Shown here one piece after another: positions 898 to 31,654 of a stretch of 31,654 nucleotides of DNA. Source of the DNA: a virus. The notes beneath the pieces were generated by a model, which was given only the letters and a program-made list of their open reading frames with translations, was not told the DNA's origin and did not search any database. Where the stretch lies: the UHGV virus genome UHGV-1544975. The stretch is one strand, 5' to 3'. The stretch's first letter is position 1. Each line of letters starts with the position of its first letter. The translations under genes were made by a program, and so were the position numbers.

Positions 898-3372
898 TTA
901 TTGCGGAGTGACATCCTGAGGTCGCCACCAGTATGTCTGGTTAAACTCTTTCTTCGAACGTTGCTCCATTTTACGCAAATAGCCTGGTGAAAAATACTCC
1001 TGCATCTGGTTAAAAATCATGTGATCGAGAGCCGCCTTCAAGTACCAGAGATTCGCACCTGGCATCAAACCTTTCCCCAGCTTCACCAGATCACCACCAG
1101 TCTGCTCACTCTTCCCTTCCACAGCATTTAACGGTATGCCCTGAGCAATCTTCACTACGTCATCAACCAGACCAGCTACCGGGCCAAGCATCGACGCCAG
1201 CGCGCCGCTTCCGTACCTAGTGTGATCTGACAATAAAAAGTCACCGTAAAGGCCAAGACCACCACCTTTCAGTAGAGCACCAAGCCAAAATTTAGCAGCA
1301 TCTTCTCCTGTCATCTCGCGAGGATTACGACCAGACGCAAGGTCGTTAAGTTGCTGCGACAAAGCGCCAAGAATGGTCGTACTGGCAATAAACGTCGCAA
1401 TATATGCCGCACGCCCACCAGCAGACGGCATACCCATAGCGCGTGACCAGTGACGCATAACCACCGAGATAGGGAACGATTTAAACAGGAAAACACTTCT
1501 CGTTAATTCACCTTTCCATGTTCCACGCTGAATACCAGAACCGGTTATCAGTTGCTCACGTGCTCCTGGTGTAATAACAGCCATATCAACTTCTTCAGTT
1601 ACGGCACCGAGCAGTTTACGCATTGCCTCAAATTTCACGCGTTCAGGCTCACCAAGATGTTTAACTGCTGAATCAGGGATACGCATAATGCTTTCCGGTG
1701 TCAGCATCGTATTATTACCGTTCCCCCAGTCCTCCTGTTGCGCCAGCTTCCATACGCTCCAGTCTGTGTCAGTAATCCCTTTGCTTTTCAGGATACGAAA
1801 ATCAGAGTCATCGAGGCTACGAAGGTCTGGTGTCCGTGACACTACTTCTCCCAGGCTTCCCATCATGGTTACGCCATAGGCGCGCTTGTGCGCATCTGAC
1901 CATGCTGTAAGCCCACTGGCACGCATTACCGCCGTTGCCGCCCAACGAGACACTGACGGCCCCATATTATCCATCGCCCAGCGGTTAACGCTGCCAAGTA
2001 GAGATTCCATCGCCAGACCAGCGCGGCGCGCCCGCGCAAGTTCTGTACGGTTCGTTGGGTCCATAGCTTCAAGCTGGTTGCGGAATAACTGGTTCATTGG
2101 AAGGTTGGTCACCTTCGCAGACAGATACATGGTTCCAAGATCAGAGAACGATGATAGCAACGCAGATCCGAGTCTGCTGGCAACCAGCCAGTTGCGGATA
2201 TTGTCAGACCATCGCGCGATGTGCGGATTCGCTACAGGCTGTGTCTTTCCGGAAATAAAGTTGTACAGATTCTCTGTGTTGTTCGCCAGCCGCTCGACTT
2301 TACCGGTTTTACTCGGGTTAGCTGTTGCCGTTTCTGCCTTCACCTGATCAAGAAGAGAGCGGAAAACATGATCGGGGTTTGGGCCATATGTTTCCACCAG
2401 TGCAATATCTTTACTGATACCTTCCAGGTGACCGACCATGATTTCCCATAGAGAGCGATCGCCATAAAGTTGCTGATATTGCAGATAGGAATCTGCATCT
2501 TTGAAATGTATCTGTCGTGATGCATTACCACGGTTAGCACGTGCGCCGGAAATTCGCATTCCGGTATCAGTAAGCTTATTCAGCCCACCAGTAGCGATCG
2601 TGTTATAAGCCTCTCCAAGAAATGCAGACAACTCGGCATCGTTCATCAGTTGTCCATCGGCTCGGATATAATATTTGCGATCCAGCTTACCTATAACATC
2701 GCTAACCCACTTATCCTTTGATACCGCCCCAACCTTTTCCATAGAATGATGTTGAGGGAACCCCCAGTTTTCGAGATAGCCAATGTCCCCACCAGCATCA
2801 TTAAACCGGCGGCGCAGTAGATCTGTCACTTCTCTCCACGCCTTAGCACCTTTTCTTGCTTTAGCATTGCCAGTATTTTGCCCTCGCATTTCATATACCA
2901 GGTCACGTACGCCCGCTTCATCTTCAAACAGACCAAAAAAGCGAGGATCAACTGCTTCGAATGCCTCCTGCAATTGACTCAATGCATAATCACGAGTGGC
3001 TTTTGTTCTGGACTCAACAGAGAGGAAATTCGATTTACCGTCTGCATTAAAAGCAATAGTACGGTTAAGAGCGCCAAGTTTCCCATCAGCCCCTTGATAG
3101 CTATTGATAAATTTATCCAATCTCTGACGTGCGGCTATAGTGAGGGCCACACGACGTTTCTTTAATGCCGCTTCTCGCTGTAATTCTTCAGATGCCAATT
3201 GTGCTGCACGATATAGCCGCTCTGATTCGGAAAGTTGTCTCCACGACATCGGGTCATCACGAGCAATGGAGCGCATATTTCGATAAATGCGGTCTTCAAT
3301 GCTCTGTATTTCTCGCGCCGTTAACGTGCGCTGCGCCGCCTGCTGGACCGCTTGTATACATTCCTGTCTCAT
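898..3372 (-). CDS. Large internal virion / ejection protein (824 aa)
   Basis: Size and position at the distal end of the virion module; hydrophobic segments typical of ejection proteins; no specific family recognised. Confidence 0.45.
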   Translation of the reverse strand: MRQECIQAVQQAAQRTLTAREIQSIEDRIYRNMRSIARDDPMSWRQLSESERLYRAAQLASEELQREAALKKRRVALTIAARQRLDKFINSYQGADGKLGALNRTIAFNADGKSNFLSVESRTKATRDYALSQLQEAFEAVDPRFFGLFEDEAGVRDLVYEMRGQNTGNAKARKGAKAWREVTDLLRRRFNDAGGDIGYLENWGFPQHHSMEKVGAVSKDKWVSDVIGKLDRKYYIRADGQLMNDAELSAFLGEAYNTIATGGLNKLTDTGMRISGARANRGNASRQIHFKDADSYLQYQQLYGDRSLWEIMVGHLEGISKDIALVETYGPNPDHVFRSLLDQVKAETATANPSKTGKVERLANNTENLYNFISGKTQPVANPHIARWSDNIRNWLVASRLGSALLSSFSDLGTMYLSAKVTNLPMNQLFRNQLEAMDPTNRTELARARRAGLAMESLLGSVNRWAMDNMGPSVSRWAATAVMRASGLTAWSDAHKRAYGVTMMGSLGEVVSRTPDLRSLDDSDFRILKSKGITDTDWSVWKLAQQEDWGNGNNTMLTPESIMRIPDSAVKHLGEPERVKFEAMRKLLGAVTEEVDMAVITPGAREQLITGSGIQRGTWKGELTRSVFLFKSFPISVVMRHWSRAMGMPSAGGRAAYIATFIASTTILGALSQQLNDLASGRNPREMTGEDAAKFWLGALLKGGGLGLYGDFLLSDHTRYGSGALASMLGPVAGLVDDVVKIAQGIPLNAVEGKSEQTGGDLVKLGKGLMPGANLWYLKAALDHMIFNQMQEYFSPGYLRKMEQRSKKEFNQTYWWRPQDVTPQ

Positions 3373-17303: not shown

Positions 17304-17380
17304 GTGGCATTAGCTCAGTTGGACAGAGCAACCGCCTTCTAAGCGGTTGGTCGCAGGTTCGAATCCTGCATGCCACGCCA
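17304..17380 (+). tRNA. tRNA-Arg (anticodon UCU), 77 nt including 3' CCA
   Basis: Folded by hand: perfect 7-bp acceptor stem GTGGCAT/ATGCCAC, D-stem GCTC/GAGC, anticodon stem ACCGC/GCGGT, loop CTTCTAA, T-arm GCAGG-TTCGAAT-CCTGC, discriminator G, CCA. Confidence 0.9.
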
Positions 17381-17578: not shown

Positions 17579-17875
17579 ATGAGCGAAACATCAACAGTAT
17601 CTTTCTCCACTGCTTTGTCATCACTCAAAGATGGTAAGCGCATTGCACGTGCCGGATGGAATGGCAAAGGCATGTATCTGCAACTGGTTAAGCCACCGCA
17701 ATCGGCCACTCCGAACGAGTGGCGATTTGACGTTACATGCGGTGACGAGTATACATTTGTACCTGGCGTTAAACTTCTACCGTGGATTGGGATGAAAACT
17801 GCTGACGGTTGCTTTGTACCGTGGCTGGCATCTCAAACCGATCTGCTATCTGATGACTGGATTGTAATTCAATAA
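17579..17875 (+). CDS. DUF2829-like small protein (98 aa), candidate Tad2-like anti-Thoeris protein
   Basis: Strong RBS; motifs ARAGWNGKGMYL and PWLASQTDLLSDDW match my recollection of DUF2829; opposite strand to flanking late genes. Confidence 0.5.
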   Translation: MSETSTVSFSTALSSLKDGKRIARAGWNGKGMYLQLVKPPQSATPNEWRFDVTCGDEYTFVPGVKLLPWIGMKTADGCFVPWLASQTDLLSDDWIVIQ

Positions 17876-20156: not shown

Positions 20157-20494
20157 ACTATTAATTTCGTTTCATGCCAGCCTTTAGTCACCCAGCATTG
20201 CGAGTCACCATTACACGGGCATGAATTAACTGGAACTCTCTCGCCGCACTTACCGCAACATTTTCTGCTGATCGATTTTATACGCCCGCGCACGCGTGCA
20301 TCATCCTGGCGGATCAGTAACGCTATATACTCACCAAATTCGTAAGGCGCACGCCCGGGGCGACGCGTGGCACAGTTACGCTCCAGCATTTCAATTTCCT
20401 GAGCATCCAGCACAATCTCCAGCTTACGTACACCGGATGCAGCTTGTCTGGCTCTCTGAGCGGCTTTGCGCTCTGCTGCTGATTTAGCCATCAA
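20153..20494 (-). CDS. Cys-rich small protein (113 aa), possible zinc-binding regulator
   Basis: Basic N-terminus; C-terminal cysteine cluster CCGKCGERVPVNSCPCNGDSQCW; sits where lambdoid phages carry Q. Confidence 0.4.
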   Translation of the reverse strand: MMAKSAAERKAAQRARQAASGVRKLEIVLDAQEIEMLERNCATRRPGRAPYEFGEYIALLIRQDDARVRGRIKSISRKCCGKCGERVPVNSCPCNGDSQCWVTKGWHETKLIV

Positions 20495-20765
20495 TATTTA
20501 CCTTTATCGCGAACACCTTTACCGGTTTATCGCCGAAGTGCGGATGTGTGATTGTCTTGATTTCATATCCGTCATACGGAATATCAATTCTGCGGCTGGA
20601 ATCGTCGCGCTTCGGATATCCCTTTGTGATAATCAGACGGTCATACTTACGGTTAACGAGTCGCTTTTTCCAGTAGTCATTACACAAGCGATACTCTTCC
20701 GTTTTCTCTCCGCGAATCATGGCATTGAAGTATTCACCTTTTACGGCAAGTTGCAGGTTAGCCAT
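20484..20765 (-). CDS. Small protein with possible ASCH/PUA-like fold
   Basis: Likely start at the internal ATG overlapping the upstream stop; LQLAVKGEYFNAMIRGEKTEEYR resembles ASCH-domain N-termini. Confidence 0.35.
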   Translation of the reverse strand: MANLQLAVKGEYFNAMIRGEKTEEYRLCNDYWKKRLVNRKYDRLIITKGYPKRDDSSRRIDIPYDGYEIKTITHPHFGDKPVKVFAIKVNIDG

Positions 20766-26323: not shown

Positions 26324-26345
26324 AACCATAGTTTTCAGTAAGTAA

Positions 26346-26370
26346 GCCGCCTCATGGCGGCTTTTTTATT
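26346..26370 (+). terminator. Rho-independent terminator after the repressor-like gene (GCCGCC-TCAT-GGCGGC then TTTTTT)
   Basis: 6-bp GC stem plus 6-T run. Confidence 0.65.
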
Positions 26371-26379
26371 GCCAGATAG

Positions 26380-26458
26380 ATTACCTTACGGGTAATTTTT
26401 TTAACTCATATCTATTGACACCAAACCAAATAAGCATAATTATTACCCCAACGGTAAC
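26380..26458 (+). promoter_or_regulatory. Early-operon promoter flanked by two operator palindromes
   Basis: ATTACC-TTACG-GGTAAT (26380..26396); -35 TTGACA (26415..26420), 17-nt spacer, -10 AATTAT; ATTACC-CCAAC-GGTAAC (26442..26458) over the -10/+1. Confidence 0.5.
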
Positions 26459-28908: not shown

Positions 28909-29157
28909 ATGAAAGGTGCATTAGGTAAGAAAGAACTCCTGGCGGTGGTGCCACTGTCATGGAGCACTATCGACCGTATGGAGCGCGCAGGGGAATTTCC
29001 TAAACGCTGGTATATCACCGATAAACGCTGCGCATGGAACCGTGATGAAGTTGAGCGTTGGCTTGATGAACGTCAGGCAGCAAGCCCGGCAGAGTTCCAG
29101 GGTAAAAAGCCTCCTGTTCAGCAACGTGTATATCGTCCCGTGAGCAACGCTGCATGA
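28909..29157 (+). CDS. AlpA-like small DNA-binding protein (excisionase/regulator-like)
   Basis: Segment LLAVVPLSWSTIDRMERAGEFPKRWYITDKRCAWNRDEVERWLD fits the AlpA/Xis-type HTH pattern. Confidence 0.55.
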   Translation: MKGALGKKELLAVVPLSWSTIDRMERAGEFPKRWYITDKRCAWNRDEVERWLDERQAASPAEFQGKKPPVQQRVYRPVSNAA

Positions 29158-29266
29158 GTGCGCTGCTAAGGCACTGGAGCAAATGGTCAGGATGGTACTT
29201 ATTCCTGGCCTCTGTTTCAGCATGGCTTTATCTGCTGGCATTAATTTTCAGAGAGGGTTGGATTAA

Positions 29267-29566
29267 GTGAGAAAGTTAAGCCGACTTGAAAAATATCACA
29301 TGAATAAGGTTTCAATGCGCAGTCCGTCAAAGATTGTCGCCGTTACTCCTGCGGCGATAGAGATCGAAAAACGCGCGATTGAAAGAGAGAAAAAAGGGCA
29401 ATTCCGCATTGCCGCTCACCTTTGGCTTCAGTGTATGGATGTTGCTTCTGGTGATGTTGAACGTGCAAGGATCGCGGTTCGCAGGGACCAATGTATCACA
29501 AAAGGTAACGGCCTTCGCCGTGGCGACTATAGCGGTATAGGATGTTGCGGGGTGGTTTATGACTAA
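29267..29566 (+). CDS. Possible PerC/Pch-like (ANR family) transcriptional regulator
   Basis: Segment FRIAAHLWLQCMDVASGDVERARIAVRRDQC resembles my recollection of the PerC core pattern; GTG start per track. Confidence 0.3.
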   Translation: MRKLSRLEKYHMNKVSMRSPSKIVAVTPAAIEIEKRAIEREKKGQFRIAAHLWLQCMDVASGDVERARIAVRRDQCITKGNGLRRGDYSGIGCCGVVYD

Positions 29567-30209
29567 GAAATACACACTAATCTATGCAGATCCACCCTGG
29601 GTATACCGGGACAAAGCCGCAGATGGTAATCGCGGTGCCGGTTTTAAATATCCGGTTATGAGTGTGATGGATATCTGCCGCCTTCCTGTGTGGGATTTGG
29701 CCGATGAAAACTGTCTGTTGGCCATGTGGTGGGTGCCAACACAACCACTCGAAGCACTAAAAGTTGTTGAAGCCTGGGGATTCCGTCTGATGACCATGAA
29801 GGGATTCACGTGGATAAAATGTGGTAGTCGACAACCAGATAAACTGGTTATGGGTATGGGTCACATGACTCGCGCCAATAGTGAAGATTGCCTGTTTGCA
29901 GTAAAGGGAAAACTACCTCCGCGCATTAATGCAGGGATCGTTCAGTCATTTACCGCACCGCGGCTTGAGCATTCAAGAAAACCAGATGTCGTTCGTGAAA
30001 AACTTGTGCAATTGTTAGGCGATGTTTCTCGCATTGAACTGTTCGCCCGCCAGTCGTCTCATGGCTTCGATGTTTGGGGTAATCAGTGCGAAGACCCGGC
30101 AGTGCAACTACACCCTGGATACGCGTTGGATATTGCCAGATTAACAAATGCATTCAGCAATGCTCCGCTGTCACCAACAGACAACCAGGGGCGGGAGCGT
30201 GCAGCATGA
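29559..30209 (+). CDS. MT-A70 family DNA N6-adenine methyltransferase (orphan)
   Basis: Catalytic DPPW motif in IYADPPWVY; no adjacent restriction endonuclease candidate. Confidence 0.8.
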   Translation: MTKKYTLIYADPPWVYRDKAADGNRGAGFKYPVMSVMDICRLPVWDLADENCLLAMWWVPTQPLEALKVVEAWGFRLMTMKGFTWIKCGSRQPDKLVMGMGHMTRANSEDCLFAVKGKLPPRINAGIVQSFTAPRLEHSRKPDVVREKLVQLLGDVSRIELFARQSSHGFDVWGNQCEDPAVQLHPGYALDIARLTNAFSNAPLSPTDNQGRERAA

Positions 30210-30400
30210 ACCGGGCATCACCAGCAGATTTAAGGAAATGCCTTGAAACTGCAAACATGCTTGCACACAGCGGGATCAGGTTTGTTCCAATTCCCGCTGT
30301 CACCGATGCTGAATTTGCAACGCTGTCAGCAATATTCGAAGACAAAATTGAATCACTGGCAGCAGAAGCCGAGATGGAAGAAAATCAGCAGAATAATTAA
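30206..30400 (+). CDS. Hypothetical small protein (64 aa) coupled to the methyltransferase
   Basis: ATG overlaps the methyltransferase TGA (ATGA); track ORF 30086..30400 is the same frame over-extended. Confidence 0.4.
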   Translation: MNRASPADLRKCLETANMLAHSGIRFVPIPAVTDAEFATLSAIFEDKIESLAAEAEMEENQQNN

Positions 30401-30403
30401 ACG

Positions 30404-31654
30404 TTATTCCCCCGCCATCCACTTCTCAAACTTCGACGGGGAGAACGGAATCAGATCCGTATGCTCCCCGTCAATCCAAGAATCAATCATATCGGCCCAC
30501 TGCTGCAACATGTAGGCGCGCTGTCTGGCGTATTCCGCTTTGTTATATACGGCGCGCACACCTTTCTGCTCATGTGCCAGAGCCTTTTCAATCCAGTCTG
30601 AAGGATAACCAGCCTCATGCAACAACGTACTGGCTGTACGGCGCATATCGTGTACGGTGAAGTCCTGAATATGCTCACCATCTTCATTTATTATTTTCAC
30701 CGTTCTGTCGATCAGAGAGTTCAGTGCGGCATTAGATAATGGCTTCCGGAAATTGTAACGACCAGGAACCAGGTATTCACTTCCACCAGCGCACATCTGC
30801 AACCCGACCAATATATCCTGTGCCTGTTTAGGCAGGTAAATAACGTGCGCCCGGCTTCCTTTCATGCGGTCTGAAGGAATTGTCCATGTCCATTTTTTAA
30901 AATCTATTTCATCCCACGTTGCATTGGTGAATTCGCCCTTACGAACCATAGTGATAAGCACCAGTTTTAAAGCCATTTTCATAGTGCCCATAGCACCAAT
31001 GGCATCCAGCGTGCGGAAGAACAGGCCAATTTCTTCTGGTGTCAGTGTTCGCTCTCGTGGTTTAAATATGGCGATAGACGAAGGTTTAATGTCAGCCGCA
31101 GGATTAAACAAACCATGACCACGGTCATTGGCGTGACGGTATACGCTGCTGATGATCTCCCTGGCCTGCACTGCTGTTGCCCGGCCACCGCGTTCGACAA
31201 TCCGGTCACACAAATCACGAACCATCGATGTGGTAATTTCAGCCATCATTTTATTGCCAAGAACCGGAAGTATGTCACGGTCGATCACCGCCTGTTTCAT
31301 TGCGCGGGTACTGTCAGCCAGGATGACGTGTTTCATATAACTGTCGGTATGTACCGCAAACGTCTCGGCACCACGAATCTTTTTGATACCGTCACGTTTA
31401 GCCGCAGCCGGTGACTGGCCTGCTTTAAGCAGCTTCTTTGCAGCAATCAGTTCTTCTCGCGCTTCTGCCAGGCTGATACCGTCACGCCCATACTGCCCGA
31501 TTACCAGCGTTTCGCGGCGACCGTTGATACGGTAGTCGTAGCGAAACGAGACCGTGCCTGACGTAAGCACAGCCACATACAGCCCGTCACGATCGGAAAC
31601 TTTGTACAGTTTGTCCTGTGGCTTGAGGTTTTTTAATTTTGTATCGGTAAGCAC
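30404..31654 (-). CDS. int: Tyrosine integrase, P4-type; start at or just beyond the window edge
   Basis: N-terminal LTDTKLKNLKP...DGLYV arm-binding-type domain; C-terminal catalytic region with HDMRRT and terminal Y; first codon in window is GTG at 31652..31654. Confidence 0.9.
   Translation of the reverse strand: MLTDTKLKNLKPQDKLYKVSDRDGLYVAVLTSGTVSFRYDYRINGRRETLVIGQYGRDGISLAEAREELIAAKKLLKAGQSPAAAKRDGIKKIRGAETFAVHTDSYMKHVILADSTRAMKQAVIDRDILPVLGNKMMAEITTSMVRDLCDRIVERGGRATAVQAREIISSVYRHANDRGHGLFNPAADIKPSSIAIFKPRERTLTPEEIGLFFRTLDAIGAMGTMKMALKLVLITMVRKGEFTNATWDEIDFKKWTWTIPSDRMKGSRAHVIYLPKQAQDILVGLQMCAGGSEYLVPGRYNFRKPLSNAALNSLIDRTVKIINEDGEHIQDFTVHDMRRTASTLLHEAGYPSDWIEKALAHEQKGVRAVYNKAEYARQRAYMLQQWADMIDSWIDGEHTDLIPFSPSKFEKWMAGE

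Follow-up and report, generated by a model that had tools for sequence, protein, structure and literature searches.

Sequence analysis of an orphan MT-A70 methyltransferase gene and its Orf63-like neighbour at the integrase end of a phiV10-type prophage

Background

What does an adenine methyltransferase do when it is encoded beside the integrase of a prophage with no restriction endonuclease to accompany it, and is the small gene whose start codon overlaps its stop codon a functional partner or a mere neighbour? This question is posed by one end of the viral genome UHGV-1544975, a stretch of 31,654 nucleotides that is referred to below as the window. A preliminary description, made from the letters alone, had regarded the methyltransferase as translationally coupled to a 64-aa ORF, had placed both genes in an integrase-proximal slot for cargo, and had suggested a role in the evasion of host restriction or in epigenetic regulation. 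The explanation that we favor, at a probability of roughly 0.6 and by analogy with characterized relatives, is that the two genes would close the early-left operon of the phage and encode a GATC-specific methyltransferase and an independent Orf63-type protein, the overlap between them being of the ordinary kind.

Identity of the element and layout of its early-left operon

Every base of the window (31654/31654, 100% identity) is matched by a prophage of E. coli ECSC054, which is about 38 kb long and lies between guaA and yfgI. The segment 28900-30420 is 98.3% identical to phage phiV10, and these alignments identify the window as a Uetakevirus prophage of the phiV10/epsilon15 type, inserted beside guaA. 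There is essentially no difference between the locus and its phiV10 counterpart, in which the genes, their order, the operon, the convergent integrase and the location on the guaA side are all the same. The phiV10 protein p33, annotated as a DNA methyltransferase, is 97% identical to the product of 29559-30209, and p32, annotated as a DUF1382 protein, is 98% identical to the 64-aa protein over the aligned part. The 1.5-kb region is carried by 559 of 5426 complete E. coli genomes (~10%). Neither gene is new: hundreds of E. coli genomes, as well as phiV10, carry annotations for both, and both families have been the subject of published experiments. The pair consists of ordinary genes of a well-known phage type.

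The absence of an endonuclease partner from the window, as initially described, also holds on a wider basis: no restriction endonuclease is present among the PGAP annotations of the whole ~38-kb prophage of ECSC054, and Pfam scans of ten further ORFs of the window, mostly from the early region, recovered no endonuclease. The methyltransferase can therefore be called an orphan. An Rfam scan of the window detected a tRNA (17304-17377) as the sole structured RNA. The features relevant to the locus are as follows.

26344-26363: terminator-like site of the repressor gene, directly before the promoter-like site at 26415
26415-26443, plus strand: sigma-70-like promoter (TTGACA-17-AATTAT), likely early-left (pL-like); located by consensus scan, function putative
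28909-29157, plus strand: AlpA-family excisionase/regulator (Pfam Phage_AlpA, E=3.1e-05; PHROG 66, excisionase and transcriptional regulator; phiV10 p36)
29154-29270, plus strand: 38-aa predicted membrane protein (PHROG 17484, E=2.6e-27; homologue of phiV10 p35)
29300-29566, plus strand: PerC-like small protein (Pfam PerC, E=6e-07, 30.1 bits against a cut-off of 22.6; PHROG 868, E=5.7e-62)
29559-30209, plus strand: MT-A70 (beta-class) N6-adenine methyltransferase, 216 aa (PF05063, PADLOC MTase_II, AF2 model)
29589-29600, plus strand: codons of the catalytic DPPW motif (residues 11-14), read from the translation
30193-30209, plus strand: junction, with an SD-like GGGAG at 30193-30197, 8 nt ahead of the ATGA at 30206-30209 (sequence reading)
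30206-30400, plus strand: homologue of lambda Orf63 (DUF1382), 64 aa (PF07131, PDB 8DSB, phiV10 p32)
30404-31654, minus strand: P4-type tyrosine integrase, convergent (Pfam Arm-DNA-bind_3, Phage_int_M and Phage_integrase; PGAP)

A consensus scan of the plus strand found only one strong promoter-like site ahead of the region, that at 26415-26443, and between 26443 and 30400 it found neither promoter-like nor terminator-like sites, so that both genes apparently lack a promoter or terminator of their own. The genes are further chained to each other by overlaps: the stop of the AlpA gene overlaps by 4 nt the start of the 38-aa ORF (which lacks a PGAP annotation in ECSC054), the stop of the PerC-like ORF overlaps the methyltransferase start by 8 nt, and the methyltransferase TGA shares the tetranucleotide ATGA with the start of the 64-aa ORF, just as the preliminary description had it. 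For the PerC-like ORF itself there are alternative starts at GTG 29267 and at ATG 29315, the latter being the choice of PGAP. The single promoter-like site, the lack of terminator-like sites and the chained overlaps together point to an operon, in which the pL-like promoter would be followed by two small ORFs, an exonuclease, RecT, AlpA, the 38-aa membrane protein, the PerC-like protein, the methyltransferase and the Orf63-like protein. RecT and the exonuclease, which is of the YqaJ type, were identified by Pfam upstream of the AlpA gene, and the gene order agrees with the phiV10 annotation. The methyltransferase and 64-aa genes look like the last two genes of this early-left operon.

Beyond them, only 3 nt (30401-30403) separate the stop of the 64-aa ORF from the stop of the convergent integrase gene, a spacing that had been noted correctly at the outset. 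The annotated CDS of the integrase starts at the last base of the window, with guaA lying further out in the host chromosome, and the early-left transcript would continue antisense into the integrase gene. Going by the consensus scans and the gene order, the operon is probably under repressor control and silent in the lysogen, and would be switched on at infection or induction.

The MT-A70 domain

The ATG at 29559 opens a 216-aa ORF that closes with a TGA at 30207-30209. Sequence profile analysis aligned its residues 5-176 to positions 1-172 of the 172 positions of the Pfam MT-A70 profile (PF05063; 79.5 bits against a cut-off of 23.9, E=3.8e-22), covering the whole domain, and the PADLOC MTase_II model was recovered at E=4.7e-77; the original assignment to the DPPW-bearing MT-A70 enzymes is thereby confirmed. 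The DPPW motif (motif IV) lies close to the N-terminus and precedes the SAM-binding part, which is the permuted order expected for the beta class. Across 20 diverse members of the family P12 and W14 never vary and D11 and P13 hardly do, while in an alignment of 51 members W14 is the only residue of the motif to be strictly invariant. The conserved core extends to a WGNQC signature, beyond which the last ~30 aa form a C-terminal tail that varies. There are thousands of homologues. Among close variants the methyltransferase has a pN/pS ratio of 0.17 and the 64-aa ORF one of 0.28, indicating purifying selection on both; taken with the Pfam scores, these ratios mark both as real genes rather than chance ORFs. 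The four antisense ORFs beneath the two genes had no match to any phage family.

An AF2 model of the protein (pLDDT 69.5) superposes on the METTL3 catalytic domain at a TM score of ~0.62, with Tetrahymena MTA1 also among the best structural matches, and the closest solved chains by sequence are Tetrahymena MT-A70 proteins, the entries including the MTA1c DNA methyltransferase complex. The catalytic fold and the DPPW motif are thus common to the phage protein and to both METTL3-METTL14 and MTA1c, at an identity of only 17-22%. However, those complexes require partner subunits and extra domains for substrate binding, whereas the phage methyltransferase, as far as the model can be followed, is a bare MT-A70 catalytic domain without a separate DNA-recognition domain.

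An orphan enzyme encoded in a phage early operon and devoid of a recognizable target-recognition domain could conceivably methylate adenines broadly or without specificity, blanketing the phage DNA against many restriction systems at once, in the manner of M.EcoGII or Hia5, and prophage enzymes with such a lifestyle do exist (PMC5778455, PMC3299994). Nevertheless, this appears improbable, given that the tested MT-A70 relatives are specific for GATC and leave HinfI and Hin1II sites unprotected (PMC7556043). Kinship with the two model enzymes was rejected on their architecture, M.EcoGII being an unrelated DPPY enzyme of 349 aa in which a recognition domain sits centrally, and Hia5 being of the Dam-like type.

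The 64-aa ORF and its junction with the methyltransferase gene

The homology search that had been proposed for the 64-aa ORF gave a clear result. The ORF runs from the ATG at 30206-30208 to the TAA at 30398-30400, and its product matches the Pfam DUF1382 profile (PF07131) at 105.5 bits (cut-off 27, E=1.5e-30) and the structure of lambda Orf63 (PDB 8DSB) by sequence at E=8.5e-13 over 61 residues (2-62), with 51% identity to lambda orf63. In a longer reading that begins at GTG 30086 the family match starts only at residue 41; this reading was set aside, and the position of the match supports the start at ATG 30206. These matches make the 64-aa protein a homologue of lambda Orf63, which is encoded in the exo-xis region, forms a small dimer with a two-helix, one-strand fold, and is pro-lytic in both lambda and Phi24B (PMC10869804, PMC5575149); the latter phage is also reported to encode a second Orf63-like paralogue, gp06 (PMC8614690). 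By analogy, the product of 30206-30400 would be an independent small dimeric protein of the Orf63 type, whose relatives in lambda and the Stx phages push development toward lysis. The family and length of the lambda protein are the same as here, as is the position of its gene within the early-left operon, with the recombination genes on one side and the integrase on the other. However, the neighbour of lambda orf63 is orf60a (DUF1317), with no methyltransferase gene adjacent to it.

Could the two proteins nonetheless form a functional pair, either as subunits of a holoenzyme or as a toxin-antidote-like module? The ATGA overlap, the frequent need of MT-A70 enzymes for partners, and the adjacency of both families in Stx phages, with a gene overlap of 41 nt there, would all be compatible with such a pair, and in Stx phage TL-2011c a DUF1382 gene directly follows the methyltransferase. 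Contextual analysis nevertheless makes this a very remote prospect. In a survey of 42 loci from 42 different species, each encoding this methyltransferase, a DUF1382 gene was found downstream of it in none (0/42), and DUF1382 was therefore rejected as a conserved partner. In the 7 Uetakevirus-like prophages among these loci, the interval from the methyltransferase to the convergent integrase is either empty or filled by small unrelated ORFs. A second survey covered 80 viral contigs with a methyltransferase 97-100% identical to that of the window. At the GCATGAA junction an Orf63-like gene starts in 53 of these, a NinI-like gene of the Ser/Thr phosphatase type in 20, and an 82-aa gene in 7. Both the SD-like GGGAG and the ATGA are furnished by the 3' end of the methyltransferase gene itself, and the junction is, as read from these alignments, a recombination site at which alternative cargo genes are spliced in after the methyltransferase. 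Overlaps are in any case common throughout the prophage, being present at 16 of its 35 same-strand junctions, 8 of them of 4 nt. Considering this frequency, the three alternative genes, the absence of DUF1382 from the 42 loci, and the presence of orf63 beside orf60a without a methyltransferase neighbour in lambda (and likewise in 933W), the ATGA overlap is ordinary operon packing and no evidence of partnership. The translational coupling that had been read into it thus loses its significance as a functional link.

The proposal that both genes are integrase-proximal cargo fares differently for each of them. With respect to variable presence as a criterion for morons, the methyltransferase is a constant part of the early-left operon in epsilon15, phiV10 and seven related prophages from other species, whereas the 64-aa gene is replaced by the NinI-like or 82-aa gene in 27 of the 80 close relatives and is absent in other genera. 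In epsilon15, the methyltransferase (gp29-type) is kept at 76% identity, a small extra ORF precedes it, and the DUF1382 gene is absent after it. The methyltransferase is therefore backbone, and the notion of cargo can be upheld for the Orf63-like gene, which is swappable.

Candidate targets of the methyltransferase

The target can be approached through characterized relatives. Residues 1-187 are 82.9% identical to an MT-A70 enzyme of Stx (Stx2a) phages, and the sequence type of the Stx-phage enzymes is shared even across residues 86-98 and 124-131, two stretches that are variable, while the C-terminal tail, diverging after WGNQC, is unlike the tails of the tested enzymes. Among the Stx-phage enzymes, M.EcoGV appears in Table 3 of PMC6602927 as GATC-specific and, when overexpressed by itself, methylates GATC in vivo according to a statement in PMC10810198. 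Similarly, expression of p32, the MT-A70 protein of Serratia phage BZS1, in a Dam-minus host rendered the DNA MboI-resistant and DpnI-sensitive (PMC7556043). This protein is 75% identical to the enzyme of phage HK639 (PMC7556043), which in turn shares 44% identity with the product of 29559-30209. The MT-A70 enzyme of Tn1549 (M.EfaBMDam) is likewise cited as GATC-specific (PMC7556043). BZS1 p32 and the HK639 and Tn1549 enzymes are of the same Pfam family and size as the protein studied here, and are also encoded in early recombination operons near an integrase. Since the tested relatives (M.EcoGV, BZS1 p32 and the Tn1549 enzyme) methylate GATC, GATC methylation of DNA is ranked first and, by analogy, is the most likely activity: the enzyme would add an N6-methyl group to the GATC adenine in replicating phage DNA, copying the specificity of the host Dam.

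In keeping with a DNA target, the methyltransferase is found elsewhere in neighborhoods of a DNA type, including nin/replication regions with RusA-like, NinB-like and O-like genes (identified by eye from their sequences), and in other relatives its neighbours are ParB_N genes or an annotated DNA cytosine methyltransferase. Avoidance of GATC was considered as a clue to specificity and discarded, the observed/expected ratio of 0.74 in the window being within the range of other 4-base palindromes and uninformative either way.

The main rival to GATC methylation of DNA is methylation of rRNA. The purified Stx-phage orthologue M.EcoPA8orf6770P was nearly inactive on DNA in vitro; it forms a 1:1 complex with PNB-2, which is encoded by the gene immediately before its own, and this complex prefers 16S rRNA in 30S subunits. 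The enzyme also raised spontaneous induction (PMC10810198). In the locus under study the PerC-like ORF occupies the same position as PNB-2, and its stop overlaps the methyltransferase start as that of PNB-2 does in Stx phages. It might hence be supposed that the PerC-like protein replaces PNB-2 and that the enzyme acts mainly on RNA, methylating 16S rRNA, tuning translation and raising the frequency of induction as in the Stx phage phiPA8. The 82-83% identity of the core to an enzyme family reported as rRNA-preferring (PMC10810198) is in line with this, as is the fact that all solved relatives are hetero-oligomers (METTL3-METTL14; MTA1-MTA9-p1-p2).

Against this stands the absence of PNB-2 itself, for which tblastn recovered no homologue in the window at E values up to 10. 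A remote homology between PNB-2 and the PerC-like family was also rejected (hhalign probability 0.6%), the two having only gene position in common. Moreover, the C-terminal tail that has been proposed to bind PNB-2 in the Stx-phage enzyme (PMC10810198) differs here, the sequences parting after WGNQC. The rRNA claim itself derives from a SAM-consumption assay in which the modified base was left unmapped (PMC10810198). Finally, HK639 and a related Klebsiella phage have upstream of their methyltransferases a PNB-2 homologue (a 'regulator' 53-55% identical to Stx-phage PNB-2), and yet BZS1 p32, the reported relative of the HK639 methyltransferase, methylates GATC alone (PMC7556043). On balance a primarily RNA-directed activity seems unlikely. 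As a separate observation, the published activities of the same kind of gene pair, a methyltransferase with PNB-2, have been reported as GATC methylation on the one hand and 16S rRNA methylation on the other, and are unreconciled.

The comparison with the Stx phages carrying M.EcoGV and M.EcoPA8orf6770P can be summarized in terms of context. The DPPW motif, the DUF1382 gene immediately downstream and the location in the early-left region near the integrase are shared. In contrast, PNB-2 lies upstream in the Stx phages and the PerC-like gene here, and the tails differ; the Stx phages are lambdoid Sepvirinae with a co-directional integrase, whereas the present element is a podovirus-type Uetakevirus with a convergent one.

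Upstream neighbours of the methyltransferase gene

The PerC-like gene raises the prospect of a partner on the other side of the methyltransferase. In the survey of 42 species a PerC-domain ORF was found upstream on the same strand in 13 loci, and nowhere else within those loci. Six of the 13 are prophages other than Uetakevirus, in which the methyltransferase is set amid other phage genes, in some cases beside RusA-like genes, and five of these six show an overlap of 4-8 nt between the PerC stop and the methyltransferase start. PerC identity is only ~30% in these cases, three of which are fusions of a winged helix with PerC; a word-index search with the PerC-like protein returned only close relatives (124 proteins, at least 51% identity among the near-full-length matches). 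This recurrent adjacency, which could also be cited for an rRNA-directed enzyme, suggests that the upstream ORF, rather than the 64-aa ORF, might be the true coupling partner, with this subtype of PerC acting as a small adaptor subunit that, much like the unrelated PNB-2 of Stx phages, binds the MT-A70 core and gates or redirects its activity, for example between GATC in DNA and rRNA. Such a role is speculative and rather improbable. Nothing beyond this adjacency hints at a real partner, and it would be explained equally well by common ancestry of a two-gene module. In addition, other genes intervene between PerC and the methyltransferase in seven related prophages, which speaks against the PerC-like protein as a stand-in for PNB-2.

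The intervening genes are of several sorts. A DGQHR/DndB-like gene lies between the PerC-like and methyltransferase genes in E. coli 2/0 and Citrobacter werkmanii (PADLOC DndB, 4.4e-40). The insert of a Scandinavium prophage has a weak match to PD-(D/E)XK_5 (E=4.5e-05, below the cut-off), and Klebsiella has a related gene in the corresponding place. Elsewhere among the relatives, the slot is taken up by an HNH homing endonuclease. For the relatives that carry them, these nuclease-type inserts bear on the label of orphan. They could also be taken as traces of a phage-borne restriction-modification or defence module from which the nuclease was lost, leaving the methyltransferase as the surviving half. 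However, these inserts fall into three types without relation to each other, epsilon15, phiV10 and the majority of E. coli copies have none of them, and the methyltransferase is widespread without any nuclease, making such an origin highly doubtful. Rather, the inserts resemble cargo acquired independently at a hot spot. Together with the downstream junction, the aligned loci indicate that variable slots flank the methyltransferase on either side.

Possible roles of GATC methylation

If the enzyme methylates GATC, several pay-offs can be envisaged. It might keep the fast-replicating phage DNA fully methylated, shield it against enzymes that cut unmethylated GATC, or protect recombination intermediates from MutH; an effect on induction is a further possibility. 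The anti-restriction role suggested in the preliminary description is accordingly among the reasonable ones. The comparison of m6A motifs between lysogen and cured strain proposed alongside it is a different matter: as repression of the operon in the lysogen is likely and the host Dam already methylates GATC, such a comparison would probably be negative even with a fully active enzyme.

Implications

The value of these observations is modest and consists mainly in correction. The 64-aa ORF can be named as Orf63-like, its apparent coupling to the methyltransferase is recast as a recombination junction that takes alternative cargo, and the comparison of lysogen methylomes can be recognized as one that would yield a false negative. 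The locus also touches on a wider question, namely whether bare MT-A70 enzymes of phages act on DNA at GATC or on 16S rRNA, and what part the small protein encoded upstream has in this. Being naturally without PNB-2 and endowed with a PerC-like gene in its place, a phiV10-type phage would offer a clean system in which to address the choice between DNA and rRNA.

Gene neighborhood 5' of the methyltransferase

In six loci from non-Uetakevirus prophages an ORF with a PerC domain lies directly 5' of the MT-A70 methyltransferase gene:
L101, 2067-2510, PerC-domain ORF
L102, 2046-2504, PerC-domain ORF
L105, 1992-2504, PerC-domain ORF
L106, 2137-2502, PerC-domain ORF
L110, 2256-2501, PerC-domain ORF
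L123, 2020-2310, PerC-domain ORF

The stop of the PerC ORF overlaps the methyltransferase start by 4-8 nt in five of these loci, and three of the six ORFs are fusions of an N-terminal winged-helix domain with PerC. In P0221 (102 aa), a DUF1382 domain occurs together with 100% identity to the N-terminal half of the PerC-like protein, implying that the methyltransferase was lost through a natural deletion. P0003 (297 aa) combines the PerC and MT-A70 domains in a single protein; it could be a fusion caused by a frameshift or else the result of misassembly.

In related prophages, nuclease-type genes fill the PerC-methyltransferase slot, and their ends overlap the start of the methyltransferase:
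L127 (E. coli 2/0), 2196-3263, nuclease-type slot gene
L092, 1437-2504, nuclease-type slot gene
L088, 1917-2495, nuclease-type slot gene
L091, 1992-2498, nuclease-type slot gene
L090, 2013-2504, nuclease-type slot gene

One kind of slot gene is DGQHR/DndB-like (PADLOC DndB, E=4.4e-40), while another encodes an HNH homing endonuclease. The slot gene of L088, to which that of L091 is related, gave a weak, below cut-off match to PD-(D/E)XK_5 (E=4.5e-05).

Gene neighborhood 3' of the methyltransferase

Among relatives with near-identical methyltransferases, genes other than the 64-aa Orf63-like gene of the window begin at the same ATGA junction:
L010, 3648-4307, alternative junction gene
L024, 3648-3896, alternative junction gene
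L128, 3807-4466, alternative junction gene

They are of two kinds: a Ser/Thr phosphatase resembling NinI (PHROG 246, E=8.5e-108) and an 82-aa protein of unassigned function (PHROG 9805). In two further relatives a second methyltransferase gene follows directly 3' of the MT-A70 gene with a 4-nt overlap:
L136, 2651-3799, annotated DNA cytosine methyltransferase
L123, 3298-5541, 747-aa ORF with, as judged by eye, a cytosine-5 methyltransferase-like FAGGGG motif at its start

In the window, the early-left operon converges with the integrase gene, with a stop-to-stop gap of just 3 nt (30401-30403). No terminator-like site was found at this junction, and the first T-rich terminator-like hairpin 3' of the integrase (minus strand, 29413-29397) falls within the PerC-like gene; hence, the operon and integrase transcripts may overlap in antisense by ~1 kb. 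In epsilon15, RNase III sites are annotated close to the integrase gene in its record.

Other genes of the window

Three further features lie elsewhere in the window:
17304-17377, +, tRNA gene (Rfam, 73.3 bits), labelled tRNA-Arg by PGAP in the identical E. coli record
17579-17875, +, 98-aa Tad2-like ORF
20484-20765, -, ASCH domain-containing protein, by PGAP label (identical record)

The Tad2-like ORF, which adjoins the tRNA gene and is flanked by terminase and portal genes, strongly matches the Pfam Tad2-like family (Thoeris anti-defence 2, DUF2829; E=3.1e-24), making it a candidate anti-defence gene. ASCH domains have been predicted to read modified nucleic acids (PMC4738411); Pfam returned no matches to the ASCH-labelled ORF at E up to 0.01.

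Two sequence types of the methyltransferase

The methyltransferase family comprises two sequence types, which are distinguished in two variable stretches:
residues 86-98, window about 29814-29852, first variable stretch, extending into a loop modelled at low confidence
residues 124-131, window about 29928-29951, second variable stretch

Type 1 reads KCGSRQPDKLVMG...AGIVQSF and type 2 HKTNKHKGNSAIG...ASICQH. The enzymes of Stx phages share the type of the window methyltransferase, whereas that of epsilon15 is of the other type. This division could stem from differences in substrate.
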